The notes below the pieces were generated by a model. The model was not told the DNA's origin. It saw only the letters and a program-made list of their open reading frames with translations, and made no database searches. Made by a program: the position numbers and the translations under genes. A stretch of DNA of 35,240 nucleotides from a virus (lineage: Duplodnaviria > Heunggongvirae > Uroviricota > Caudoviricetes), in IMG/VR virus record IMGVR_UViG_649989946_000003; one strand, given 5' to 3'. Positions 7,509-26,411 of this stretch are shown here, piece after piece (within the stretch, counting starts at the first letter, position 1; each line of letters begins with the position of its first letter).

Positions 7509-7538
7509 CTGATGAACGTAAAAAACGTTTTACATCAG
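7509..7538 (+). terminator. imperfect hairpin downstream of gene A (possible terminator)
   Basis: CTGATGAACGT ... ACGTTTTACATCAG inverted repeat followed by an AT-rich tract. Confidence 0.3.
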
Positions 7539-7801: not shown

Positions 7802-7971
7802 CAGCAGGGGCGTTGCTGGCGTGAGAACTAGATTCTCGCGTCAGCAAGGTCAACTAAGGATTGAAACAGAAAGCCCTTGAAAACAGTAGCAAGTTGCCTA
7901 TTATCTACGCTGTATTTAATCGATGTCATTGGCTGTAATACCTTAAGTGATATTGAAAGGCGGTGTGGGGA

Positions 7972-9132
7972 ATGGATCTGGCTAAAGTTGAAGAACGCGT
8001 CCGAAGAGTCATAGGGACAATGGAGTCTGCCGAGCTTGATGAATATTTTTGGGGTAAGCGCTCGGGTTTGGGAGACTCATTACCTCCGTATTATCTCGTT
8101 TATTTTCTTTTGGTAGATTTACTGAAATTTAAAAATCGTGGGGTTGATGAGAAGATTTCTTTTTCTATCCCAGTCCGGATTGATGGGACTGTCGTAATTA
8201 TAGAACATCGTAAACTTGGTTTAGATATATTTATCAAGAGTGATGATGATATAGAGCAAGCTAAAACTGTTTTGAGACATATTTGCGCAGGGGTTAAAGC
8301 TGCTACGAATTTTTTTGACTCGCTTGCAGACAATGCAGCAAAGACTTCAAATCTAAATGTTAATAACAATGCTAATTCTCTTTATGATAGGTTTTGCTAT
8401 TTTTTAGAGCTATATAAACAGAAGCTTGATGAAGTTGCTGCTGGCCAAGAGTCTAAACTGGAAGTTGATAGTGAGTTTAAGTCTGATAATTTTTTCAGCC
8501 TGTTACAATCCACTTTTGAACAATCAAATAAGATAATTGAACTCCGAAGAGAGGCTATGTGGTTAGCAACGTCTGCAATTGAGTCATTTTTCAATTGGAC
8601 CGAGCATGTTTTCATTCTTATTGCAATCTTGAAGGGTGAGATAAAAAATGGGAATGATGTGGCTGATAAAGTTGGAAAAGAATGGGGGGAGAAATTCAAA
8701 TTAGCCATTGATATTAACTCTTCCAGTCTAAAATTGTTCTATGATCGTTTACTTATACTCAGAAAACAGGTGCGTAATTTTGTAGCCCATGGCGCCTTCG
8801 GTAAGGATGGGCAAGCATTGGAATTTCACTCAAGTGTAGGGGCTGTGCCACTATTGCTGCCTCATCGAGAAAATAAAGAACGTTTCAAGTTTGGAAATGG
8901 TGTGCATTTTTTGGCACCTGAAGCAATGCAATTAATTAACGATTTTCTTGAAAATTTGTGGCAGGGAAAACTGTCCCCAGCAAAAATTTATATTGAATCT
9001 GGATGTCCTTTAATACTATCTTACGTAACTAATGGAACCTATGCGGAGGCGATGAAATCAGAAAGGAATATGGACTTATTTGTTAATTACTTAACTCGTG
9101 AGATGGATAATGCCGCAAACATGGATTGGTAA
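7972..9132 (+). CDS. AT-rich cargo protein (386 aa) with an HEPN-like Rx4H motif; candidate abortive-infection/defence effector
   Basis: Long ORF of visibly lower GC than the phage core. ATG at 7972 (in-frame GTG at 7963). Motif R-N-F-V-A-H at 8773-8790 (LRKQVRNFVAHG) resembles the HEPN catalytic motif; no Walker A, so not Old-like. Confidence 0.6.
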   Translation: MDLAKVEERVRRVIGTMESAELDEYFWGKRSGLGDSLPPYYLVYFLLVDLLKFKNRGVDEKISFSIPVRIDGTVVIIEHRKLGLDIFIKSDDDIEQAKTVLRHICAGVKAATNFFDSLADNAAKTSNLNVNNNANSLYDRFCYFLELYKQKLDEVAAGQESKLEVDSEFKSDNFFSLLQSTFEQSNKIIELRREAMWLATSAIESFFNWTEHVFILIAILKGEIKNGNDVADKVGKEWGEKFKLAIDINSSSLKLFYDRLLILRKQVRNFVAHGAFGKDGQALEFHSSVGAVPLLLPHRENKERFKFGNGVHFLAPEAMQLINDFLENLWQGKLSPAKIYIESGCPLILSYVTNGTYAEAMKSERNMDLFVNYLTREMDNAANMDW

Positions 9133-9332
9133 ACTCTAGGTGTGGGTTACAAACACACAAAAAATCTTCCTGAGTTAGGTGTTATCCCAACCCAAGGCTG
9201 TGTCAGGAAAACTTCATATGGCGCATGAGATCGCATGATAGTATGACGATCGTTTTCGCTGATGCCAGCCAGAACTGGCGTGCTTTTGCTTATGTCATGC
9301 AGGTGCATGAAAACCACTATATAAAGTGGGCA

Positions 9333-9351
9333 GGCGTGGCGGGGATACGAT
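9333..9351. other. candidate cos site (cohesive-end sequence)
   Basis: GGCGTGGCGGGGATACGAT followed by TGCGCGC, resembling (from memory) the P2 cohesive end GGCGAGGCGGGGAAAGCAC + TGCGCGC. Lies in a GC-richer non-coding block between two AT-rich cargo genes, upstream of Q. Confidence 0.45.
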
Positions 9352-9432
9352 TGCGCGCAGAAGATTATTATTGGTACACTGTCGGTGACTCTCTACGCAG
9401 ATCTTACACATTAATTTCTAATGGGGCATGCT

Positions 9433-10233
9433 ATGATCTTTCTAAGTCATAATCACCGTGACAAAAGGTTTGTAAGTGTTATAGCGGAAAAACTAGCAGA
9501 TGTTTATGGGCGTGATAACGTATTCTACGATTCTTGGTCTATCCAACCCGGAGAGGGTATTATTGACAAGATGAATTTAGGAATGGAGAATGTATCGTTC
9601 TTTTTCTTTTTTGTCACAGAAAATAGTTTGGCAAGTAACATGGTAAAAATGGAATGGCAAAATGCTTTAATTAAGGCATCGTCCGGGAAGTGTAAATTTA
9701 TACCAATACGTTGCCAGAATATATCCTTGCCTGCTCTGCTTACTCAAACGCTATATATTGATCTTTATTCGTATGGGATCGATGTGGCAATAAGACAAAT
9801 TATAGATGTCATTAATCAACAAAATACGTATATTCCTAATCCTGAGAAGTATTCAAACCTCTCCTATGATATTAAGGATGGTGATGGGGGTAAGATAGTG
9901 AAATTATCAGCAATGGATTTTTTAGAACCAATTGCTGATTTTATGATGATTATGGATAATACAATTAAGCATGATGATGTTGTTGTTATGGTCAATGGAG
10001 AAAGCACATTCACTCAGGGGTTTATTGAAAATGCATCTTTAGAAAATGGTATGAAAGTAAGTGGTGCCACTGTTGGCCTAAATCGGGGGTTAACACCAAC
10101 GATGCCAATGTATGTTTCTCTTAGGTTAAAGGATGGTTCACCTTTGAATATATTTGCGGTGCTACATCGAGTAAGTACCGAGCGTTATGCTCCTATACCA
10201 CATAAAGCCGATGATGCCTTTAGAGTAAAATAA
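9433..10233 (+). CDS. TIR-domain protein (266 aa): N-terminal TIR domain plus about 130-aa C-terminal domain of unknown function
   Basis: N-terminal block IFLSHNHRDKRFVS...VFYDSWSIQPGEGI...FFFFFVTENSLASNMVKMEWQNALIKA matches TIR hallmarks, including the conserved Glu in the S..W..E region (codon 9652-9654). AT-rich. ATG at 9433 with a G-rich RBS. Confidence 0.75.
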   Translation: MIFLSHNHRDKRFVSVIAEKLADVYGRDNVFYDSWSIQPGEGIIDKMNLGMENVSFFFFFVTENSLASNMVKMEWQNALIKASSGKCKFIPIRCQNISLPALLTQTLYIDLYSYGIDVAIRQIIDVINQQNTYIPNPEKYSNLSYDIKDGDGGKIVKLSAMDFLEPIADFMMIMDNTIKHDDVVVMVNGESTFTQGFIENASLENGMKVSGATVGLNRGLTPTMPMYVSLRLKDGSPLNIFAVLHRVSTERYAPIPHKADDAFRVK

Positions 10234-16540: not shown

Positions 16541-16756
16541 ATGACGCTTGAGCGAATCAGCGCCTTTATCACGTATTGCATCGCCGTCGTGCTGGCCTGG
16601 CTGGGCGATTTGTCCATCAAGGATGCCTCAACGCTGGGCGGCCTGATGATCGGTGTGCTGATGCTGGCTATCAACTGGTACTACAAACACAAAGCCTACC
16701 AGCTTCTGCGCGACGGGCAGATCACGCGGGAGGACTATGAATCCATCAATCGTTAA
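16541..16756 (+). CDS. holin
   Basis: 71 aa with two hydrophobic transmembrane segments and a charged C-terminus, immediately upstream of the endolysin. Confidence 0.7.
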   Translation: MTLERISAFITYCIAVVLAWLGDLSIKDASTLGGLMIGVLMLAINWYYKHKAYQLLRDGQITREDYESINR

Positions 16757-17249
16757 ACGCTGCCTTGTCGGGACCGTGCTGGCTATTGCTGCCACGCTGC
16801 CGGGTTTTCAGCAGCTTCACACCTCCGTGGAGGGGCTGAAACTGATTGCCGATTACGAAGGCTGTCGTCTGCAGCCGTATCAGTGCAGCGCGGGTGTCTG
16901 GACCGACGGCATTGGTAATACGTCGGGCGTCATTCCCGGCAAAACCATTACGGAGCGACAGGCAGCGGAAGGGCTGATCTCCAACGTGCTGCGTGTGGAG
17001 CGGGCGCTGGAAAGGTGTGTGAAGCAACAGCCGCCGCAGAAGGTGTATGACGCGGTGGTGTCGTTTGCCTTCAACGTGGGAACGGGCAATGCCTGCAGTT
17101 CCACGCTGGTGAAATTACTCAATCAGCGGCGCTGGGCGGATGCGTGCCGACAGTTGCCGCGCTGGGTTTATGTAAAAGGTGTGTTTAATCAGGGGCTGGA
17201 TAACCGCCGTGCGCGGGAGATGGCCTGGTGTTTACAGGGAGCAAACTGA
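16737..17249 (+). CDS. endolysin (lysozyme-like, probable signal-anchor-release type)
   Basis: N-terminal hydrophobic SAR-like segment (CLVGTVLAIAATLPGF), then a lysozyme-like region (LIADYEGCRLQPYQCSAGVWTDGIGNT). RBS GGGAGGA. Confidence 0.85.
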   Translation: MNPSIVKRCLVGTVLAIAATLPGFQQLHTSVEGLKLIADYEGCRLQPYQCSAGVWTDGIGNTSGVIPGKTITERQAAEGLISNVLRVERALERCVKQQPPQKVYDAVVSFAFNVGTGNACSSTLVKLLNQRRWADACRQLPRWVYVKGVFNQGLDNRRAREMAWCLQGAN

Positions 17250-17250
17250 A

Positions 17251-17628
17251 ATGAAAAAGAAATTAATCAGCGGACTGTTTCTGATGTTATGGATGGCGCT
17301 GTTAATCGCAGCAATGGTGTATCCGCAGGGGATTTTTCCGGTACTGGCAGCATCTGGTGTCTGGGTAGCCTGTCTGCTGACATGGGTGGTAATTCCGGTA
17401 GCACTGGCTGCGTTAATTAAGAATGGCTCGCTCTGGCAGGAGTTGAGGGCATCTTTGCTGAAGACAATTACCCGAAAAGAAAACGTATTTATCAGCTGGG
17501 TGATGCGATTGCTGATTGTCGTAAGTCTCGCCTGGACGGGGTGGGCTATTACCCTGGTCTTTTATCTGCTGACCGTTATTGCCTTCTGGATCACCCGTAA
17601 TCAGATGGCGCAACAGGTAGCAGCATGA
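17251..17628 (+). CDS. lysA: LysA-like membrane lysis accessory protein
   Basis: 125 aa, multiple transmembrane segments; ATG at 17251 with AGGGAG upstream (ORF-track start at 17179 is an extension). Confidence 0.65.
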   Translation: MKKKLISGLFLMLWMALLIAAMVYPQGIFPVLAASGVWVACLLTWVVIPVALAALIKNGSLWQELRASLLKTITRKENVFISWVMRLLIVVSLAWTGWAITLVFYLLTVIAFWITRNQMAQQVAA

Positions 17629-18053
17629 ACCGGTTGCTGCTGGTTGTGCTGGCGTTATTACTGGCGGCGCTGGGCTGGCAGACGTGGCGGCTGGCTGATG
17701 CCAGCCAGACCATCAGCACGCAGGCAGACGAGCTGCAGCGCCAAAGCCAGGCACTGGCAAAGAGCAACAGCCAGCTTATCAGCCTGTCCATTCTGACTGA
17801 AACCAATAACCGGGAGCAGGCGCGGCTCTATGCCGACGCAGAACAGACCAGCGCACTGCTGAGACAACGACAACGCCGGATGGAGGAACTGAAACGTGAG
17901 AACGAGGATTTACGCCGCTGGGCTGATACTCCTTTGCCTGCTGACATTATCCGGCTGCGGGAACGTCCGGCACTCACCGGAGGTGCAGCTTACCGTCAGT
18001 GGTTGTCCGCGAGTGACGCCGTGTCGGCTGGATCAGGCAACGCCGCGCACTAA
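17625..18053 (+). CDS. lysB: LysB (Rz-like i-spanin)
   Basis: N-terminal transmembrane segment, then a coiled-coil-like Gln/Arg-rich periplasmic region; overlaps the lysA stop. Confidence 0.75.
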   Translation: MNRLLLVVLALLLAALGWQTWRLADASQTISTQADELQRQSQALAKSNSQLISLSILTETNNREQARLYADAEQTSALLRQRQRRMEELKRENEDLRRWADTPLPADIIRLRERPALTGGAAYRQWLSASDAVSAGSGNAAH

Positions 18054-18186
18054 TGGTGATCTGAACGCGTTGCTGGATGAAACGGAGGCCGCCTGGGCGG
18101 TCTGTGCAGACAAAGTGGACATGATTATTGCGTGTCAGGAGCGAAACAGTGAACAAACCACAATCCCTGCGCCACGCCCTCAATAA
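17896..18186 (+). CDS. lysC: LysC (Rz1-like o-spanin lipoprotein), embedded in and extending beyond lysB in another frame
   Basis: Lipobox LLTLSGC after a hydrophobic signal; GTG start with GGAGG RBS; 96 aa. Confidence 0.6.
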   Translation: MRTRIYAAGLILLCLLTLSGCGNVRHSPEVQLTVSGCPRVTPCRLDQATPRTNGDLNALLDETEAAWAVCADKVDMIIACQERNSEQTTIPAPRPQ

Positions 18187-18580
18187 AGCGGTGCCTTATG
18201 TCCGCAATAACCCGGACAAACTGCATCTGTTTGTGGATAACGGTTCGCTGGTTGCCACGGGGGCCAGCTCTATGTCGTGGGAGTACCGTTACACCCTGAA
18301 CGCGGTGATTGAGGATTTCAGCGGCGACCAGAATCTGCTGATGGCCCCGGTTTTGCTGTGGCTGAGGGATAACCAGCCCGATGCCATCAATAACCCGGCG
18401 TTACGGAAAAAACTATTCACCTTTGAGGTGGATATTCTGCGCAACGATGTCTGTGATATCAGCCTGAACCTGCAACTGACGGAGCGTGTGCTGGTCAGCA
18501 CTGACGGTAGTGTGTCGAGCGTTGAAGCTATAGCGGAACCTGATGAACCTGAAGAAATGTGGACGGTGAAACGTGGCTGA
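18149..18580 (+). CDS. R: tail completion protein R
   Basis: GTG at 18149 with AGGAG 7 nt upstream; P2 gpR position and size. Confidence 0.8.
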   Translation: MNKPQSLRHALNKAVPYVRNNPDKLHLFVDNGSLVATGASSMSWEYRYTLNAVIEDFSGDQNLLMAPVLLWLRDNQPDAINNPALRKKLFTFEVDILRNDVCDISLNLQLTERVLVSTDGSVSSVEAIAEPDEPEEMWTVKRG

Positions 18581-19019
18581 ACTGCAGAAAGTGGACGACT
18601 GGCTGAGTGCCTTGCTGGCGAATCTGGAACCAGCCGCCAGAAGCCGCATGATGCGCCAGCTGGCGCAGGAACTGCGCCGGACACAGCAGCAGAACATCAG
18701 GATGCAACTCAATCCTGATGGCAGCAGCTATGAACCGAGGCGAGTAACAGCACGCAGTAAAAAAGGCCGTATCAAACGGCAGATGTTTACAAAACTTCGC
18801 ACCACAAAATACCTGAAAACCGCCGCCAGCGAGGATTCTGCCAGCGTGCAGTTTGAAGGTAAGGTGCAGCGCATTGCCCGCGTTCACCATTATGGCCTGC
18901 GTGATCGCGTCAGCCGCAAAGGACCGGAGGTCCGTTACGCAGAGCGTCGCCTTCTGGGCGTAAATGATGATGTTGAGGCAATGACCCGCGACATGATTCT
19001 GCAATGGTTGGCGGGGTGA
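18573..19019 (+). CDS. S: tail completion protein S
   Basis: 148 aa, overlaps the R stop; P2 gpS position and size. Confidence 0.8.
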   Translation: MAELQKVDDWLSALLANLEPAARSRMMRQLAQELRRTQQQNIRMQLNPDGSSYEPRRVTARSKKGRIKRQMFTKLRTTKYLKTAASEDSASVQFEGKVQRIARVHHYGLRDRVSRKGPEVRYAERRLLGVNDDVEAMTRDMILQWLAG

Positions 19020-19023
19020 TTTT

Positions 19024-19041
19024 TGTACCAGCACTGATACA
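19024..19041. promoter_or_regulatory. Ogr/Delta-type late activator site (TGT-N12-ACA) for the V-W-J-I-H-G operon
   Basis: TGT (19024-19026) + 12 nt + ACA (19039-19041), about 50 nt upstream of V. Confidence 0.5.
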
Positions 19042-19087
19042 AGTTGCAGCACTGCCGCCTTTCTTCCCCTGATGGCAACCTTTCCCT

Positions 19088-19666
19088 ATGAACGCACAAT
19101 TAACCGAAATCATGCGCCTTATCACCAACCTGATCCGCACAGGTGTAGTCACCGAAGTGGACCGGGAAAACTGGCTTTGCCGGGTGAAAACAGGCGAGCT
19201 TGAAACCAACTGGATTAGCTGGCTGACGCTGCGTGCCGGGAATGCCCGGACATGGTGGCGACCATCGGAAGGTGAGCAGGTGGTGCTGCTGAGTCTGGGC
19301 GGTAATCTGGAAACAGCTTTTGCGCTGCCCGCCATCTATTCGAATCAGTTCGCACCACCGTCGACGTCGGCGGACGCCTGCGTGACAGAACATCCTGACG
19401 GTGGCTGGTTTGAATACGAACCCGCCACCGGGCGCTGGTATGTCAGGGGCATCAAATCCATGGTCATTGAGGCTGTCGACAACATCACCATGAAAACCAG
19501 TGAGTTTGTACTGGAGGCTGACCGCACGCGCATTAACAGCGAAGTGGTGATCAATGGTGGCGTTACCCAGGGCGGCGGAGCGATGAATTCTAACGGGATT
19601 GTGGTTGATGCGCATCAGCATACTGGCGTCCTGAAAGGCGGCGACACAACCGGAGGTCCGGTATGA
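19088..19666 (+). CDS. V: baseplate assembly/spike protein V
   Basis: 192 aa, first gene of the baseplate operon; P2 gpV position. Confidence 0.9.
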   Translation: MNAQLTEIMRLITNLIRTGVVTEVDRENWLCRVKTGELETNWISWLTLRAGNARTWWRPSEGEQVVLLSLGGNLETAFALPAIYSNQFAPPSTSADACVTEHPDGGWFEYEPATGRWYVRGIKSMVIEAVDNITMKTSEFVLEADRTRINSEVVINGGVTQGGGAMNSNGIVVDAHQHTGVLKGGDTTGGPV

Positions 19667-20022
19667 CGCTTTATAGCGGGATGAACAATACCAGCGGCAA
19701 AGCCATTACTGATATTGACCATCTGCGCCAGTCGGTTCGGGACATTCTGCTGACACCGCAGGGTAGCCGTATTGCCCGTCGGGAATATGGTTCCCTGCTG
19801 TCGGCACTGATAGACCAGCCACAAAATCCGGCATTACGCCTGCAGGTCATGTCGGCAGTGTATGTGGCGCTGAGTCGCTGGGAGCCACGGCTGACGCTGG
19901 ATTCCATCACCATTAACAGCAATTTTGACGGTTCAATGGTGGTGGAGCTGACCGGGCGGCGTAATAACGGTGTGCCTGTTTCCCTTTCCGTATCAACAGG
20001 AGCAGAGAATGGCAGTGATTGA
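19663..20022 (+). CDS. W: baseplate protein W (gp25-like)
   Basis: 119 aa, RBS GGAGG, overlaps the V stop. Confidence 0.9.
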   Translation: MTLYSGMNNTSGKAITDIDHLRQSVRDILLTPQGSRIARREYGSLLSALIDQPQNPALRLQVMSAVYVALSRWEPRLTLDSITINSNFDGSMVVELTGRRNNGVPVSLSVSTGAENGSD

Positions 20023-20917
20023 CCTTTCGCAGTTGCCTGCGCCGCAGATTGTGGATGTGCCGGACTTTGAGACGCTGCTTGCCGAACGCAAGGCCGAATT
20101 TGTGGCGCTTCATCCGAAAGATGAGCAGGAAGCAGTGATCCGCACGCTGGAACTGGAATCTGAACCCGTTACCAAATTGTTGCAGGAGAATGCTTACCGT
20201 GAGTTGCTTCTGCGCCAGCGCATTAACGAAGCCGCGCATGCTGTGATGGTGGCTTACGCGATGGGCGGCGATCTTGACCAGCTCGCTGCCAACTACAACG
20301 TGAAACGCCTGACGGTGACGCCTGCTGATAATGACGCTGTGCCACCCGTTGCGGCTGTGATGGAAAGCGATGAAGCGTTACGCCTGCGTGTGCCTGCGGC
20401 TTTTGAAGGGCTTTCGGTTGCGGGGCCAACCGCAGCTTATGAATTTCATGCCCGAAGCGCCGACGGTCGGGTGGCTGATGCCAGTGCAACCAGCCCGGCA
20501 CCTGCAGAGGTGGTACTGACTGTCCTTAGCCGCGAAGGCGACGGAACAGCAGAAAAAGACCTGCTGGATGTGGTGGAGAACGCCCTGAACAGTGAGAACG
20601 TCCGCCCGGTGGCTGACCGTCTGACGGTTCGCAGCGCAGAAATCATACCGTACCGCGTGGAAGCCACCATTTTTCTCTATCCGGGGCCGGAAGCAGAGCC
20701 GGTAATGGCAGCGGCAAAAGCCAGCCTGCAGAAGTACATCGCCAGTCAGACGCGGCTTGGTCGGGATATTCGCCGTAGCGCCATCTTTGCCGCCCTGCAT
20801 GTTGAGGGTGTGCAGCGTGTGGAGCTGGCTTCGCCGCTGGCGGATGTGGTTTTGAACAAAACGCAGGCGGCATCATGTACGGAGTGGAGCGTGACCAACG
20901 GGGGAACGGATGAATAG
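20009..20917 (+). CDS. J: baseplate assembly protein J
   Basis: 302 aa from the ATG at 20009 (AGGAG 7 nt upstream), the same length as P2 gpJ. Confidence 0.9.
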   Translation: MAVIDLSQLPAPQIVDVPDFETLLAERKAEFVALHPKDEQEAVIRTLELESEPVTKLLQENAYRELLLRQRINEAAHAVMVAYAMGGDLDQLAANYNVKRLTVTPADNDAVPPVAAVMESDEALRLRVPAAFEGLSVAGPTAAYEFHARSADGRVADASATSPAPAEVVLTVLSREGDGTAEKDLLDVVENALNSENVRPVADRLTVRSAEIIPYRVEATIFLYPGPEAEPVMAAAKASLQKYIASQTRLGRDIRRSAIFAALHVEGVQRVELASPLADVVLNKTQAASCTEWSVTNGGTDE

Positions 20918-21515
20918 TCTGCTGCCATCGGGGTCAACTTCACTGGAGCGCCGACTGGCGCAGACCTGTAGCGGGATTTCTGATCTGCAGGTGCCGCTGC
21001 GTGACTTGTGGAATCCGGCTACCTGCCCGGTCAGCTTCCTGCCTTATCTCGCCTGGGCGTTCTCTGTGGATCGCTGGGACGAAGGCTGGACAGAAAGCGT
21101 CAAGCGCCAGGTGGTGAAGGATGCTTTTTATATTCATCAGCATAAAGGGACCACCAGTGCCGTGCGGCGGGTGGTGGAGCCGTTCGGCTTTCTAATCCGC
21201 ATTATTGAGTGGTGGCAGACCGGAGAGGCACCGGGCACGTTTCGTCTGGATATCGGCGTGCAGGACCAGGGCATCACTGAAGATACCTATCTGGAACTTG
21301 AGCGGCTGATAAGCGATGCCAAACCATGTAGCCGTCACATGATCGGCATGTCCATCAATCTGCAGACCAGCGGTCCGCATTGGGTGGGGGCCGCCAGCTA
21401 TCTTGGCGAAGAAATCACGATCTATCCGTATATCAACGAAACAATTATTTCTGGCGGCACCGCGCATGAAGGCGGGGCGGTCCATGTTATTGACACAATG
21501 AGAGTGAATCCATGA
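20910..21515 (+). CDS. I: baseplate/tail protein I
   Basis: 201 aa, overlaps the J stop; P2 gpI position. Confidence 0.9.
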   Translation: MNSLLPSGSTSLERRLAQTCSGISDLQVPLRDLWNPATCPVSFLPYLAWAFSVDRWDEGWTESVKRQVVKDAFYIHQHKGTTSAVRRVVEPFGFLIRIIEWWQTGEAPGTFRLDIGVQDQGITEDTYLELERLISDAKPCSRHMIGMSINLQTSGPHWVGAASYLGEEITIYPYINETIISGGTAHEGGAVHVIDTMRVNP

Positions 21516-23053
21516 GCACAAAATTTTATACCCTGCTGACGGATATTGGCGCGGCGAAACTTGCCAGCGCCGCCGCGCTCGGTGTGCCGCTAAAAATTAC
21601 CCATATGGCGGTCGGCGATGGCGGCGGAGTATTGCCAACGCCAGACTCAAAGCAGACTGCACTGGTAAATGAGAAACGCCGGGCTGCGCTGAATATGCTC
21701 TATATCGACCCGCAGAACAGCAGCCAGATTATTGCCGAACAGGTGATCCCTGAAAACGAGGGCGGTTGGTGGATACGTGAAGTGGGCTTGTTTGATGAGT
21801 CCGGGGCATTGATTGCCGTGGGCAACTGCCCGGAAAGCTATAAGCCGCAACTGGCTGAAGGTAGCGGGCGCACTCAGACCGTGCGCATGGTGCTGATTAC
21901 CAGCAGCACGGACAATATCACCCTGAAAATCGACCCTGCCGTAGTGCTGGCAACCCGCAAGTATGTGGATGACAAGGCACTGGAGCTGAAGGTGTACGCG
22001 GATGATCAGATGGCAAAACATCTTGCCGCACCGGACCCGCATTCACAGTATGCACCCAAAGAAAGTCCGACGTTTACCGGGACACCCAAAGCGCCAACGC
22101 CAGCCGCAGGGAATAACACCACGCAGATTGCGACCACCGCGTTTGTTCAGGCGGCTCTGACGGCTCTTATTAATGGTGCGCCAGCCACGTTGGACACACT
22201 GAAAGAAATAGCCGCAGCCATTAACAATGATCCGAAATTCAGTACCACCATTAACAATGCGCTGGCACTGAAAGCGCCGCTGTCGAGTCCGGCACTCACC
22301 GGAACGCCAACCGCACCTACTGCGGCACAGTCGGTCAACAATACACAGATTGCCACCACGGCATTTGTGAAATCGGCGATTGCGGCAATGGTGGGTTCTG
22401 CACCTGCGGCACTGGATACACTGAACGAACTGGCGGCAGCGCTGGGGAATGACCCGAACTTTGCCACGACAATGCTTAATGCGCTGGCAGGTAAACAACC
22501 GCTGGACAATACGCTGACTAATTTGAGTGGAAAGGATGTAGCTGGTCTTCTCACATACCTTGGTTTGGGAGAAGGTTCGGCATTACCTGTTGGTGTACCT
22601 GTTCCATGGCCTTCAGCCATTCCGCCGACAGGCTGGCTGAAATGCAACGGTGCAGCTTTTTCTGCTGAAGAATACCCGGAACTGGCAAAGGCTTATCCGA
22701 CAAATAAATTGCCTGATTTACGTGGTGAGTTTATTCGTGGCTGGGATGACGGGCGTGGAGCTGACAGTGGTCGGGGATTATTAAGCTTTCAAAAAGCCAC
22801 TCTGGTTGAAAGTTTTGGTCTGGTCAGGTCACCAACCACTGGCTCTTATCGTCTGGTTACCAGACCGACAGAAACTGTTTCTGATAATACGTCTAACTAT
22901 ATGACGACTGATTATGATTCCCGTGAAGGTTTATATTCCTCTGCAACAGCATACCCCTCTATCGAATTGCCACCAACTGGAGCAGGCGCAGGGGCTGGTT
23001 TTAGGGTTCGACCAAGGAATATTGCATTTAACTATATTGTGAGGGCTGCATAA
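21512..23053 (+). CDS. H: tail fibre protein H (constant N-terminal part fused to the currently expressed variable C-terminal part)
   Basis: 513 aa; N-terminal virion-attachment region, tandem fibre repeats, C-terminal receptor-binding part. A hix-like crossover site lies inside the gene at 22549-22574. Confidence 0.9.
   Translation: MSTKFYTLLTDIGAAKLASAAALGVPLKITHMAVGDGGGVLPTPDSKQTALVNEKRRAALNMLYIDPQNSSQIIAEQVIPENEGGWWIREVGLFDESGALIAVGNCPESYKPQLAEGSGRTQTVRMVLITSSTDNITLKIDPAVVLATRKYVDDKALELKVYADDQMAKHLAAPDPHSQYAPKESPTFTGTPKAPTPAAGNNTTQIATTAFVQAALTALINGAPATLDTLKEIAAAINNDPKFSTTINNALALKAPLSSPALTGTPTAPTAAQSVNNTQIATTAFVKSAIAAMVGSAPAALDTLNELAAALGNDPNFATTMLNALAGKQPLDNTLTNLSGKDVAGLLTYLGLGEGSALPVGVPVPWPSAIPPTGWLKCNGAAFSAEEYPELAKAYPTNKLPDLRGEFIRGWDDGRGADSGRGLLSFQKATLVESFGLVRSPTTGSYRLVTRPTETVSDNTSNYMTTDYDSREGLYSSATAYPSIELPPTGAGAGAGFRVRPRNIAFNYIVRAA
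22117..22500 (+). repeat. tandem ~50-aa coding repeat inside tail fibre H
   Basis: Two copies of ...TQIATTAFV..A...GAPA.LDTL.E.AAA..NDP.F.TT..NALA.K.P... Confidence 0.5.
22549..22574 (+). repeat. left inversion crossover site (hix-like)
   Basis: TCTCACATACCTTGGTTTGGGAGAAG, inside H. Confidence 0.6.
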
Positions 23054-23655
23054 TGGATAACGCCATATTAAATAGCGAGATTATCGCCACCAAAGCAGGG
23101 AATATTACCGTCTATAACTATGATGGTGAAACTCGAGAATATATTTCCACTTCAAATGAATATCTTGCTGTTGGCGTCGGTATCCCTGCATATTCCTGTT
23201 TAGATGCCCCTGGCACACATAAGGCGGGTTATGCTATCTGCCGTTCGATGGATTTAAACTCATGGGAATATGTGCCAGACCATCGCGGTGAAATCGTCTA
23301 TAACACCGAAACGGGAGACGCAAAAGAAATCACAACTCCGGGTGATTACCCCGAAGAAACAACCACTATCGCCCCGTTAACGCCATACGATAAATGGGAT
23401 GGTGAAAAATGGGTGACAGATACTGAGGCACAATACGGTGCCGCAGTAGACGCGGCAGAAGCACAGCGCCAGTCACTGATTGATGCAGCAATGGCTTCCA
23501 TCAGTCTGATTCAACTGAAATTGCAGGCCGGACATAAACTGACGCAGGCAGAAACAACCAGACTTAACGCTGTGCTGGATTACATTGACGCGGTGACGGC
23601 AACAGATACCAGCACCGCGCCGGATGTCATCTGGCCTGAACTGCCGGAGGCGTAG
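23053..23655 (+). CDS. G: tail fibre assembly chaperone G
   Basis: 200 aa; start overlaps the H stop (TAATG). Confidence 0.85.
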   Translation: MDNAILNSEIIATKAGNITVYNYDGETREYISTSNEYLAVGVGIPAYSCLDAPGTHKAGYAICRSMDLNSWEYVPDHRGEIVYNTETGDAKEITTPGDYPEETTTIAPLTPYDKWDGEKWVTDTEAQYGAAVDAAEAQRQSLIDAAMASISLIQLKLQAGHKLTQAETTRLNAVLDYIDAVTATDTSTAPDVIWPELPEA

Positions 23656-24070
23656 GCCATTCAATATCTGGCGCACCGGAAGTATCGATCAGCTCCAGTG
23701 CGTCCAGATAATCCAGCCACAAATTATATTGCGCCAGTTCATCACCTTTCAGACGACCAATAGCGGCTTTGCCGGGCCATTGCTTACTGTTCATGTATTC
23801 GTTGGCCTGGTTAATTAGTAGCTGTCTTTCTGATTCAGTAATTTCAATAAGTTCTTCATGCGTGGGTGGAGGAATATCTGCCCACGCGGGCTGCCCATCA
23901 CCTCCGGCAATACGGATTTTTCCTTGTGGCGGTTCAGCCATAAATTCACTGATAATATTTTGATTCACCTCTTTAGCATCTGATAAATCCCATCCCTCTG
24001 ATTTATATTTATCAATCATATCCACAGGGAAAAAAGCATTATGCCTTGCGCTATAAACATATTCGTTCAT
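23627..24070 (-). CDS. alternative tail fibre assembly chaperone (G')
   Basis: 147 aa from the ATG at 24070, convergent with and overlapping G; conserved C-terminal Tfa-like motif (YNLWLDYLDALELIDTSGAPDIEWP, compare G: LNAVLDYIDAVTATDTSTAPDVIWP). Confidence 0.8.
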   Translation of the reverse strand: MNEYVYSARHNAFFPVDMIDKYKSEGWDLSDAKEVNQNIISEFMAEPPQGKIRIAGGDGQPAWADIPPPTHEELIEITESERQLLINQANEYMNSKQWPGKAAIGRLKGDELAQYNLWLDYLDALELIDTSGAPDIEWPTPPAVQAR

Positions 24071-24090
24071 ATAAATCACCCTTAATAAAA

Positions 24091-24464
24091 TTACTCACCA
24101 ACAGCCCACCAACTGTAATTCATCGATACTGTGGAACTGGTTGATGCAGTTCTGTAAGCGGAATTAAAACCGGTTAATGTTGGACCTTCTGCGGTCATCA
24201 CGAATCCCCGTCCAGCACCTAAAGGTGCACCACCATCACCAGAATGAGTAAGCATGGCGCAGTCCACTTTTTTAGGAAAAGGGATGCTGAATGTAATTCT
24301 CATTGTTTGCGTCGATAATGTCGGCGTAACCGCACCTCGACCATATTGCAGGATTTTACCGTTGGGTAATTTCATCCATCCATCACCACTGGCAAAAGAA
24401 GCCATATCCGGTATCTGATTTTCCCCTGTTCCCACATCCCGTTTTGCCGCTTCTCCCAAACCAA
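24091..24464 (-). CDS. alternative tail fibre C-terminal segment (promoterless; expressed only after inversion)
   Basis: Minus-strand ORF ending at 24091, entering at the right crossover site where the shared GLGE junction codons lie. Confidence 0.65.
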
Positions 24465-24475
24465 CGTTTAAGAAA
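24450..24475 (-). repeat. right inversion crossover site (hix-like, inverted relative to the left site)
   Basis: Reverse complement reads TTTCTTAAACGTTGGTTTGGGAGAAG. Confidence 0.6.
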
Positions 24476-24531
24476 ATGCAGCGATTACGGCTAACTGGCA
24501 TCATCCCCTATTTTTATTCAGGGAGATGATC

Positions 24532-25097
24532 ATGCTTATTGGCTATGTACGCGTGTCAACAAATGACCAGAACACCGATTTGCAACGTAATGCGCTGAAC
24601 TGCGCGGGATGTGAGCGGATTTTTGAGGACAAAATCAGTGGCACTAAGTCCGACAGACCGGGGCTTAAAAAACTGCTCAGGACACTATTGGCAGGAGACA
24701 CGCTGGTTGTCTGGAAGCTGGACAGGTTGGGGCGCAGTATGCGGCATCTTGTTACGCTGATAGAAGAGTTGCGCCAGCGTGGTGTGAATTTCCGAAGCCT
24801 GACTGACAGTATTGATACCAGTACCCCAATGGGCCGTTTCTTTTTCATGTCATGGGTGCCCTGGCTGAAATGGAACGCGAACTGATAGTTGAACGTACCC
24901 GGGCAGGGCTGGCTGCAGCTCGTGCTAAAGGCAGAGTAGGTGGACGCCGTCCTAAGTTGACCACTGAACAGTGGGCACAGATTGGACGTTTACTCGAGGC
25001 CGGAGAATCAAGACAGCGTATTGCACTGATTTTTGATGTAGGCGTTTCTACCATTTATCGAAAATTTCCGGCAAATAAGAGCAATAAATCTCCCTGA
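24532..25097 (+). pseudogene. pin: Pin/Hin/Gin-family serine DNA invertase, split by a 1-nt frameshift in a T5 run (about 24841-24845)
   Basis: N-terminal part MLIGYVRVSTNDQNTDLQRNAL... stops after ...SIDTSTPMGRFFF; the continuation MGALAEMERELIVERTRAGLAAARAKGR... is in the next frame (ORFs 24526..24885 and 24852..25097). One extra T would restore the GRFFFHVMGALAEME junction recalled from e14 Pin. Confidence 0.8.
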
Positions 25098-25145
25098 ATC
25101 AGCTTTATTTTGATTATCCCTGAAAGCAGACAAATACCGTCATTT

Positions 25146-25163
25146 TGTGTGAATAACGGTACA
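25146..25163. promoter_or_regulatory. Ogr/Delta-type late activator site (TGT-N12-ACA) for the FI-FII-E-T-U-D operon
   Basis: TGT (25146-25148) + 12 nt + ACA (25161-25163), about 80 nt upstream of FI. Confidence 0.5.
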
Positions 25164-25239
25164 ACTGCGCTTAGCTGTTTGTCAGGCACAATCACTTCAA
25201 CATAGGGCGAAGCCTAATCCAATCAGGAGGTTCGCCACT

Positions 25240-26411
25240 ATGGCTCAGGATTACCACCACGGGGTGCGCGTTGTTGAAGTCAACGAAGGCACCCGATCCA
25301 TTACCACGGTGAGCACCGCCATCGTGGGTATGGTCTGCACGGGCGATGATGCCGATGCAAAAATGTTTCCTCTTAATAAACCCGTGCTGATCACTGATGT
25401 GCTGACTGCCAGCGGTAAAGCGGGTGAGTCCGGCACGCTGGCCCGTTCGCTGGATGCCATCGCTGACCAGGCAAAACCCGTGACCGTTGTTGTGCGTGTG
25501 CCGCAGGGTGAAACGGAAGAAGAAACCACGACCAATATCATCGGCGCAGTGACTGCTGAAGGTAAAAAACAGGCATGAAAGCTCTGTTATCTGCTCAGTC
25601 ACAGCTCGGCGTTAAACCGCGCATTCTGGGTGTACCAGGTCACGACACCAAGGCGGTAGCTACTGAGTTGCTGAGTGTGGCGCAAAGCCTGCGTGGGTTT
25701 GCTTACCTGTCAGCGTATGGCTGCAAGACTGTGCAGGAGGCAATCACTTACCGTGAAAACTTCAGCCAGCGCGAAGGGATGCTGATCTGGCCCGACTTTA
25801 CTGGCTGGGACACGGTGCTGAATGCCGAAGCAACGGCATATGCCACCGCCCGTGCGCTTGGTCTGCGTGCCAAAATTGATGAGCAGACCGGGTGGCACAA
25901 AAGCCTGTCCAACGTGGGCGTGAACGGTGTCACCGGAATTTCTGCTGATGTGTTCTGGGATCTGCAGGACCCGGCAACCGATGCGGGACTGCTTAACCAG
26001 AACGACGTCACCACGCTTGTGCGCAAGGATGGTTTCCGCTTCTGGGGTTCCCGCTGTCTGAGCGATGATCCGCTTTTTGCCTTCGAAAACTACACCCGCA
26101 CAGCGCAGGTACTGATGGACACAATGGCAGAAGCACATATGTGGGCGGTGGACAAACCGCTGAACCCGTCGCTGGCCCGCGACATTATCGAAGGTATCCG
26201 CGCCAAAATGCGCAACCTGGTCAGTCAGGGCTATCTCATTGGTGGTGATTGCTGGCTGGATGAGTCGGTGAACGACAAAGACACGCTGAAAGCCGGAAAA
26301 CTCACCATCGACTATGACTACACGCCAGTGCCGCCACTTGAAAATCTGATGCTGCGCCAGCGCATCACCGATCAGTACCTGGTGAATTTCGCCAGCCAGG
26401 TCAGCGCGTAA
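25240..26411 (+). pseudogene. FI: tail sheath protein FI, split by a 1-nt frameshift in an A6 run (25564-25569); may be a sequencing error
   Basis: ORF 25240..25578 matches my recollection of the P2 sheath N-terminus and ORF 25575..26411 the remainder (...[21 protein letters not shown]...). A seventh A would give in-frame ...[15 protein letters not shown]... Confidence 0.8.

Follow-up and report, generated by a model that had tools for sequence, protein, structure and literature searches.

Does a tail-fibre switch whose invertase gene is interrupted by a frameshift have a locked host range, or does the frameshift tell us more about the assembly than about the phage? The question is raised by a stretch of 35,240 nt from E. 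coli 1827-70 (the window, by which we mean the whole of the analysed DNA), in which an original prediction had recognized an invertible tail-fibre segment and a broken invertase in a P2-like prophage and had proposed that, unless the break is a sequencing error, the host range is locked in the current orientation. The prophage is indeed P2-like (Peduoviridae), as is evident from homology and from a gene order that follows P2, namely int, C, A, Q-P, O-N-M-L, the lysis genes, V-W-J-I-H-G, FI-FII-E-T-U-D, and ogr. Its insertion adjoins ybjL, and the window is collinear with annotated P2-like prophages located at ybjL at 96-97% identity; the fibre region is 89.5% identical to a Peduovirus record. 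A literature search on the strain, assembly, and run accessions returned no match.

The segment is bracketed by two inverted, imperfectly palindromic 26-bp sites with matching central dinucleotides. The top-ranking inverted repeat pair in the interval 21500-25200 consists of 27-nt arms at 22548-22574 and 24450-24476 that are 81% complementary, and it is the same pair that had been predicted at 22549-22574 and 24450-24475 (21 of 26 bases identical). In the canonical 26-bp register the sites extend over 22548-22573 and 24451-24476. The left site (hixL/gixL-type) reads TTCTCACATACC TT GGTTTGGGAGAA, with the central TT at 22560-22561, and lies inside the reading frame of the tail-fibre gene H; the right site (hixR/gixR-type) reads TTCTCCCAAACC AA CGTTTAAGAAAA, its central AA at 24463-24464 being the complement of the left-site TT, so that the two centres complement each other, a requirement for inversion. 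Both share their core with the cixL and cixR sites annotated in P1 (ACC TT GGTTTAAGAGAA), the part common to the window and P1 sites being ACC-TT-GGTTTnnGAGAA, and in P1 the cix crossover is annotated within the central TT. A scan of the 35 kb with the Din-site consensus, allowing up to three mismatches, returned only these two places, compared to 0.00 expected from 100 shuffles. The same scan thus yielded no third crossover site or shufflon, and no extra half-sites were found in 22000-25200. A multiple-inversion system of the type of p15B Min or the three-site E2348/69 locus was considered and rejected, as it needs at least three sites and two were found.

Between the sites lie approximately 1.9 kb that hold two sets, one per strand, of an alternative fibre C-terminus and an assembly chaperone, an arrangement that had been predicted and that the open reading frames and Pfam domains bear out. 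Gene H (21512-23053, + strand; Pfam Phage_tail_fib at residues 1-150, and Collar) consists of a constant N-terminal part common to both fibre forms (21512-22573, residues 1-354, ending ...LTYLGLGE) and the current variable C-terminus (22574-23053, + strand, residues 355-513), which carries a Collar tip (Pfam Collar 361-408). It is followed by the chaperone of the current tip (23053-23655, + strand, 200 aa, Pfam Caudo_TAP 3.7e-31), annotated in relatives as tail fiber assembly protein or tfaE. On the other strand are a 147-aa alternative chaperone (23627-24070, - strand, Caudo_TAP 4e-30), already called as a gene in the source contig, and a silent, promoterless alternative fibre C-terminus with a Gp53-like_C tip (24091-24450, - strand, Pfam Gp53-like_C 3.1e-13), whose open reading frame runs from 24504 to 24091 with an incidental ATG at 24504. 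None of the five proteins is covered by a specific NCBIfam model. A scan for promoters and terminators across the region gave no more matches than shuffled sequence and was left out of the argument.

Evidence that the segment inverts comes from relatives. Two prophages (L030 and L031) occupy the same ybjL site as the same prophage, with phage flanks 99.9% identical to the window; in both, the interval 22560-24467 is turned round, its 1908 nt differing by 2 mismatches, and the breakpoints fall within the sites. The left site is where alignments to flipped relatives break, and in relatives with other segment contents the homology picks up again at 24450-24463. When the segment is flipped in silico, the silent tip joins H residues 1-354 in frame to give a 473-aa protein, H', which shares its first 354 residues with the current fibre, is followed by the 147-aa chaperone, and has no mismatch to a known protein (P0091) present on 56 contigs; the exact 513-aa H of the current orientation is present on 112 contigs. 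Conversely, the sequence of the current tip is found as a silent 176-aa copy adjoining the invertase in L030, L031, and phage pro483, the last of which is collinear with the flipped window and not with the native one. The segment is therefore seen both ways round among relatives and in the databases. Because near-identical prophages hold either orientation, the switch demonstrably works in this prophage lineage. For related loci, namely the P2-like prophages of EPEC E2348/69, inversion has been demonstrated by sequencing and PCR (PMC4272514).

One could still suppose that the repeats are coincidental and that the segment does not invert, a view for which the 81% complementarity of the arms is the one point that can be cited. 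It carries a negligible probability, since chance predicts no consensus matches at all, the window sites agree with those annotated as cix in P1, and near-identical prophages are found either way round, their breakpoints lying inside the sites; the flipped L030 and L031, together with the identity of H' to P0091, refute it. The locus is almost certainly a host-range switch of the Din family (Hin/Gin/Cin/Pin), of the Mu G-segment type, in a P2-like prophage.

The invertase gene (24532-25097, + strand) lies just outside the segment, 56 nt from the right site, in agreement with the earlier assignment of a Pin/Hin-family enzyme. As written it is split into frames of 117 aa (24532-24885) and 81 aa (24852-25097). 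Restoring one T gives 188 aa with the Resolvase (1.1e-52) and HTH_7 (1.4e-15) domains in Pfam, 100% identical to WP_001535207.1, which aligns to Mu Gin structures (3UJ3, 1.6e-92; 4M6F, 4.1e-91) with YVRVSTNDQ in register. The repaired protein has the features of a small serine recombinase (Resolvase domain, Ser9/10, C-terminal HTH), retaining Ser9, the basic residues K46/K47/R50, and the Fis-contact residues Q150/R153/L154 (QIGRL), in a numbering that is Hin minus 1. The corresponding Hin residues (Q151, R154, L155, and the basic residues 47, 48, and 51) are invertase-specific and contact Fis or the enhancer (PMC3798978). A presumptive Fis-dependent recombinational enhancer can be placed at 24550-24621 (+ strand) by position and homology only: the interval corresponds by homology to nt 19-90 of P1 cin, a stretch to which AF234172 gives the annotation 'enhancer of Cin-mediated C-segment inversion'. 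Of its 72 bases 56 are identical, a match no closer than that of the remainder of the gene. Among seven invertase genes, synonymous-codon identity is weakly raised in the enhancer region, at 0.52 compared to 0.41 outside it.

By analogy with the family, invertase dimers would bind both 26-bp sites, and Fis, bound to an enhancer within the first ~100 nt of the invertase gene, would bring them together into an invertasome. Both sites would presumably be cut at the central TT/AA, as the P1 annotation and the site sequences suggest, and rotation followed by religation would leave the ~1.9 kb flipped. Since the left site is within H, such a flip exchanges the fibre C-terminus along with its chaperone: the last 159 residues (Collar tip, with the 200-aa chaperone) are swapped for 119 different ones (Gp53-like tip, with the 147-aa chaperone), and the first 354 residues and the promoter keep their position. 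The 147-aa chaperone is predicted to be expressed only after inversion.

The system is of a known kind; Din-type invertible fibre cassettes are textbook knowledge from Mu, P1, e14, and P2-like prophages. The closest parallel in layout is the G segment of Mu and D108, with the order S, gixL, Sv, U / U', S'v, gixR, 55 nt, gin (56 nt in the window), a site inside the fibre gene, and an invertase transcribed away from the segment. The repaired invertase aligns with Mu Gin over residues 1-184 (1.6e-92); its identity to D108 Gin is 74.6%. In contrast to Mu and D108, the phage in the window is P2-like (Peduoviridae) rather than transposable and Mu-like, its segment is ~1.9 kb rather than ~3 kb, and its tips are Collar and Gp53-like_C on a constant part of the P2 H type. 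The P1 C segment resembles the window in its 26-bp sites with the shared core and central TT crossover, in the protein identity of Cin to the repaired invertase (78.6%), and in the homologue of the cin enhancer at the same position within the gene; it differs in its size (4.2 kb) and in having cin on the other side, with the 3' end of the gene overlapping cixL. Salmonella Hin/hix and e14 Pin share with the window the recombinase subclass, the 26-bp sites, the Fis and enhancer dependence (presumptive in the window), and the conserved Fis-contact and helix-B basic residues, whereas Hin flips a promoter rather than a coding C-terminus and its gene lies inside its own segment. Prototype P2 is not known to have an invertase. 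The invertible loci of other P2-like phages and prophages (E2348/69, pro483, 'phage P2' of O157:H43 T22, and the UMNK88 prophage) belong to the same phage and invertase families and occupy the same position between H and FI. The segment of pro483 is the same one, 92% identical and in the opposite orientation, whereas E2348/69 has one locus with three sites and four variants compared to two sites in the window (PMC4272514).

The invertase gene of the window carries a lesion. Every related locus aligned there has TTTCTTTTTTCAT where the window has TTTCTTTTTCAT, which confirms the predicted 1-nt deletion in the sequence as given: a run of six T in relatives is a run of five at 24841-24845 (+ strand), downstream of the codon for Phe105 and ahead of the part that encodes helix E and the DNA-binding domain. 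An intact recombinase frame is therefore absent from the window, and a product read as written would lack both of these elements. The protein with the T restored is an exact match to one found on 541 contigs, and the truncated form of the window is confined to this assembly and the reads behind it.

Two further lesions of the same kind are present. Outside the switch, 720 nt downstream, an A6 run at 25564-25569 (+ strand; A7 in relatives) splits the tail-sheath gene FI (25240-26411) into frames of 112 and 278 aa, and the repaired 390-aa sheath protein is an exact match to one on 675 contigs. The original prediction had missed this sheath lesion. The third is an intergenic A6 run at 7520-7525 (+ strand), which is A7 in eight of the eight relatives compared. 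Over ~31 kb, comparison with relatives shows no 1-nt indels other than these three deletions, all in A/T runs of 6-7, and at each site the relatives that cover it have the full-length run. With one of the lesions in the essential sheath gene and another in an intergenic run, the break in the invertase points to miscalling. A second, independent assembly (Logan) of the same run, SRR040453, which we take to be 454 pyrosequencing, contains a contig with 11,038 nt identical to the window that ends exactly at 25569, where the sheath A run closes, and whose start, if collinear, falls inside the T6 run 9607-9612. Contig ends at homopolymers indicate that the reads are noisy at homopolymers. Where the 1827-70 contig could be followed to the left, over 5 kb, it shows only polymorphic T-run differences, in a stretch too short to give a genome-wide error rate. 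We consider it probable that the invertase, sheath, and intergenic lesions are all homopolymer-length miscalls in a 2010 draft assembly; combined with the switch itself, the whole reading is likewise probable, as its strength is that of the weaker part.

Several observations run against miscalling. T5 at 24841-24845 is the majority call in the reads and not a consensus slip of one assembler, because the Logan assembly reproduces it without a break there. Wholesale shortening of long homopolymers can be rejected, as 49 other runs of 6-8 bases remain in the window, error-free by appearance (42 of six, six of seven, and one of eight). These clean runs, together with an 8.5-kb stretch that is 100% identical to the sister prophages L032 and L033, mean that any error rate is modest.

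The frameshifts could instead be real, the 1827-70 prophage being in very recent decay by slipped-strand deletions that have cost it the invertase and the sheath; the segment would then be held in its Collar-tip orientation unless a second Din-family invertase, encoded elsewhere in the genome, acts in trans. The commonest real spontaneous indel is a one-base deletion in A/T runs. The unbroken T5 in the independent assembly and the unremarkable state of most long homopolymers in the window fit such decay, as does the visible decay of sister prophages (L032, L033, L037, and L038) via large deletions, and by our own estimate a divergence of ~0.1% over ~50 runs of at least 6 bases would produce 0.25-1.25 indels, so that three is high but not absurd. 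Against this, each of the three lesions is found in a single 2010 draft and in none of the relatives compared at that site, and they come without a nonsense mutation, an IS element, or a larger indel. Past its frameshift the invertase gene still matches the intact allele at 100% over 69 codons, and the end of the Logan contig at the sheath A run is unexpected for a clean real deletion. Real decay is accordingly a minority possibility.

It could also be proposed that the T6 run, perhaps along with the sheath A7 run, is a recurrent slippage hot spot acting as a second-tier on/off switch that freezes the fibre switch. This is highly improbable, and equally so its corollary of a heritable, reversible off-switch of which the 1827-70 allele is one natural 'off' state. 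The idea draws on the recurrence of the same two truncations, in invertase and sheath, across many allelic backgrounds: the identical frameshift (…FFF then MSW…) is found in a 46-member cluster with at least a dozen invertase alleles, and the truncated N-terminal sheath fragment on 69 contigs with unrelated fibre modules. The same recurrence speaks for miscalling, as the carriers are enriched for assemblies prone to homopolymer errors, including contemporary drafts (DEC1D, S. flexneri K-227, and S. boydii 4444-74), Mb-scale contigs (one from an NCTC isolate), two complete genomes riddled with split genes (L007 and L013), and very short Logan contigs. The intact clusters have 2365 and 5230 members compared to 46 and 163 for the truncated ones, and a run of six is short for a contingency locus.

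The claim that the host range is locked is accordingly not supported, and a biological lock of the switch is probably not what the window records. The lesion on which the claim was built is one of three private homopolymer deletions, another of which breaks the sheath; a single restored T yields a protein known from 541 contigs, the truncated form being unique to this assembly and its reads; and the Logan contig end at the sheath A run points to reads that are noisy at homopolymers. Either all the lesions are miscalls or the prophage is without a tail, and in the latter case host range is moot: were they real, the prophage would be defective, with no sheath and no infectious particle, and a frozen state would have no effect on host range. 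Moreover, Din invertases complement each other in trans, so that a genuine lesion would still leave the segment locked only in a host that has no other member of the family. The biological weight of the case is small and its practical value lies in caution: where a 'locked' phase-variable switch is inferred from a pseudogene call, the neighbouring genes and sister genomes should be checked. This same prophage is present, in either orientation, in hundreds of sequenced E. coli.

The window carries an entire P2-like prophage, after which come the host genes ybjL, ybjM and grxA. Exact matches to its proteins assign the window to E. coli 1827-70 (assembly GCA_000165655.2, contig ADUK01000019.1). 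Its P2-like affiliation, proposed in the original prediction, is borne out by comparison with many E. coli genomes: the P2-like prophages annotated in them beside ybjL, at this same site, are collinear with the window at 96-97% identity. The prophage carries a Din-family inversion system (the Hin/Gin/Cin/Pin serine DNA invertases) with the layout of the Mu G segment. In phages D108 and Mu the order S, gixL, Sv, U / U', S'v, gixR, 55 nt, gin is exactly that of the window, where the corresponding distance is 56 nt.

A repeat search of the region returned the predicted hix-like pair as the top inverted repeat, namely 22548-22574 and 24450-24476 (27 nt, 81% complementary). A scan for the Din-site consensus with at most 3 mismatches matched only two places in 35 kb, which are these two sites, and none in 100 shuffles. 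In the 26-bp canonical register, the left site (22548-22573) reads TTCTCACATACC-TT-GGTTTGGGAGAA and the right site (24451-24476) reads TTCTCCCAAACC-AA-CGTTTAAGAAAA; the central dinucleotides are mutually complementary, which is the requirement for inversion. In P1 (AF234172), the annotated cixL and cixR have the sequence ...AAACC-TT-GGTTTAAGAGAA, and the annotation places their crossover in the central TT. Since a search of the window for a third recombination site found none, the arrangement is a two-state switch, and a shufflon is ruled out.

The left site lies inside the tail-fibre gene H (21512-23053, plus strand), whose 513-aa product has a Phage_tail_fib N-terminus and a Collar domain in its C-terminal tip. 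It is followed on the same strand by a 200-aa assembly chaperone (Caudo_TAP, 23053-23655), while the minus strand encodes a 147-aa alternative chaperone (Caudo_TAP, 24070-23627) and a silent, promoterless fibre tip with a Gp53-like_C domain (24450-24091). The expected alternative fibre termini and chaperones on opposite strands are therefore present, as is the invertase gene just outside the segment: it starts at 24532 on the plus strand, 56 nt past the right site, and is transcribed away from the segment.

A search for exact copies of the window's tape-measure protein brought up the same prophage in other strains, integrated at the identical chromosomal position. Two of these copies, L030 and L031, agree with the window at 99.9% identity over the phage parts of the flanks and have 22560-24467 reversed (2 mismatches in 1908 nt). 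In silico inversion of the window at the central dinucleotides produces a 473-aa fibre, H', whose residues 1-354 are those of the current H and which matches the L031 protein with zero mismatches. Of the two forms, the 473-aa fibre of L031 occurs on 56 contigs and the 513-aa H of the window on 112. Phage pro483 is collinear across both junctions with the flipped but not the native window. These comparisons show that the segment inverts in this prophage lineage. Inversion in P2-like prophages was demonstrated experimentally in EPEC E2348/69 (PMC4272514). The combination of this layout with a P2-like prophage is already documented, the prophage of the window occurs in hundreds of public genomes, and its system shows no departure from the known mechanism.

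In six more distant P2-like prophages (L008, L009, L011, L012, L015 and L016), similarity to the window is lost and regained precisely at the recombination sites (22572-22576 and 24450-24463), with unrelated cassettes between them. This shows that whole tail-fibre cassettes are exchanged there, and the recombination sites evidently double as module boundaries.

The invertase gene is split as written. The predicted 1-nt deletion in a T run stands, the window having TTTCTTTTTCAT where every related locus aligned across the site has TTTCTTTTTTCAT. Restoring one T gives a 188-aa invertase with Resolvase and HTH_7 domains that matches Mu Gin crystal structures (1.6e-92), is 78.6% identical to P1 Cin and is 100% identical to WP_001535207.1 from another E. 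coli strain. Ser9 is retained, and so are two groups of residues described in PMC3798978 as specific to Fis-dependent invertases: K46/K47/R50, which are basic and lie in helix B, and Q150/R153/L154, which contact Fis. The counterpart of the annotated P1 enhancer lies at 24550-24621 (56 of 72 bases identical), where synonymous conservation among seven invertase genes is slightly higher than elsewhere (0.52 vs 0.41); this stretch is a putative enhancer. A genuine shift of frame after Phe105 would cost the protein its oligomerisation helix and its DNA-binding domain and leave it dead.

The lesion has company. A change from A7 to A6 at 25564-25569 likewise breaks up the tail-sheath gene FI (25240-26411), 720 nt downstream, leaving ORFs of 112 and 278 aa. 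Relative to two relatives (~31 kb, ~97% identity), the only 1-nt indels in the window are three deletions, all in A/T runs of 6-7: 7520-7525 (intergenic), 24841-24845 and 25564-25569. The invertase and sheath runs are full-length in L030 and L031, and the intergenic run in six other same-lineage prophages. Exact copies of the repaired invertase and sheath occur on 541 and 675 contigs, respectively, and the truncated invertase is confined to this assembly and the Logan assembly made from the same read run, SRR040453. An 11,038-nt part of the Logan contig matches 14532-25569 of the window base for base, and the contig terminates with the final A of the sheath run; provided that it is collinear over its whole length, it would begin within the T6 run 9607-9612. 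Reads that are noisy in run length are expected to give contigs broken at homopolymers at either end. The truncations are also seen elsewhere, on a large number of unrelated alleles; notable among the carriers are other contemporary drafts and complete genomes that contain many split genes. We consider it likely that the homopolymer lesions are sequencing miscalls.

Recent, genuine decay of the prophage seems to us unlikely, with several points in its favour: the T5 run is reproduced in the independent Logan assembly, whose contig is unbroken at that site; 49 other long homopolymer runs of the window appear normal; sister loci match 8.5 kb of the window without a difference; and real 1-nt deletions also favour homopolymers. 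Large internal deletions in sister prophages indicate that real decay occurs in this lineage. The counterpart of 16698-25976 is absent from L032/L033 and the portal to baseplate J from L037/L038, both pairs from other strains; one such deletion takes out the tail genes and the entire invertible segment. It is very improbable that the T6 run of the invertase is instead a true recurrent slippage hot spot serving as a second-tier switch.

The claim that host range is locked follows in neither case. If the lesions are artefactual, as we favour, the switch has no defect; real lesions would mean a broken sheath as well, and no infectious particles would be made. Moreover, members of the Din family are known to complement each other in trans.

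Several further observations concern these runs and their surroundings. Among relatives, the cluster of P0001-P0015 has 46 members, ~117-aa truncated invertases all with the same frameshift after FFF. It spans at least 12 allelic backgrounds from sources including DEC1D, S. flexneri K-227 and an NCTC isolate; the cause is either repeated miscalling of homopolymers or a real hot spot. The 112-aa sheath fragment of the window recurs unchanged on 69 contigs whose tail-fibre modules are unrelated, marking the sheath A run as a recurrent trouble spot in assemblies. The intergenic A6 run downstream of gene A, A7 in 8 of 8 compared relatives, is located within the loop of a possible terminator, a GAACGT...ACGTTT palindrome. 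The invertase ORF is flanked, from ribosome-binding region to stop codon, by a 12-nt inverted repeat without mismatches, ATTCAGGGAGAT / ATCTCCCTGAAT (24516-24527 / 25088-25099). By our estimate ~0.4 such pairs are expected by chance in 3.7 kb; the repeat is imperfectly conserved in UMNK88 and so is probably fortuitous. Finally, a module at 7963-10233, between replication gene A and the portal gene, encodes a 389-aa ORF without a PADLOC match and a 270-aa TIR-domain protein (Pfam TIR_2; weak PADLOC matches to TIR-NLR, 5e-8, and ThsB, 7e-4), and is possibly anti-phage defence cargo in the known P2 variable region.
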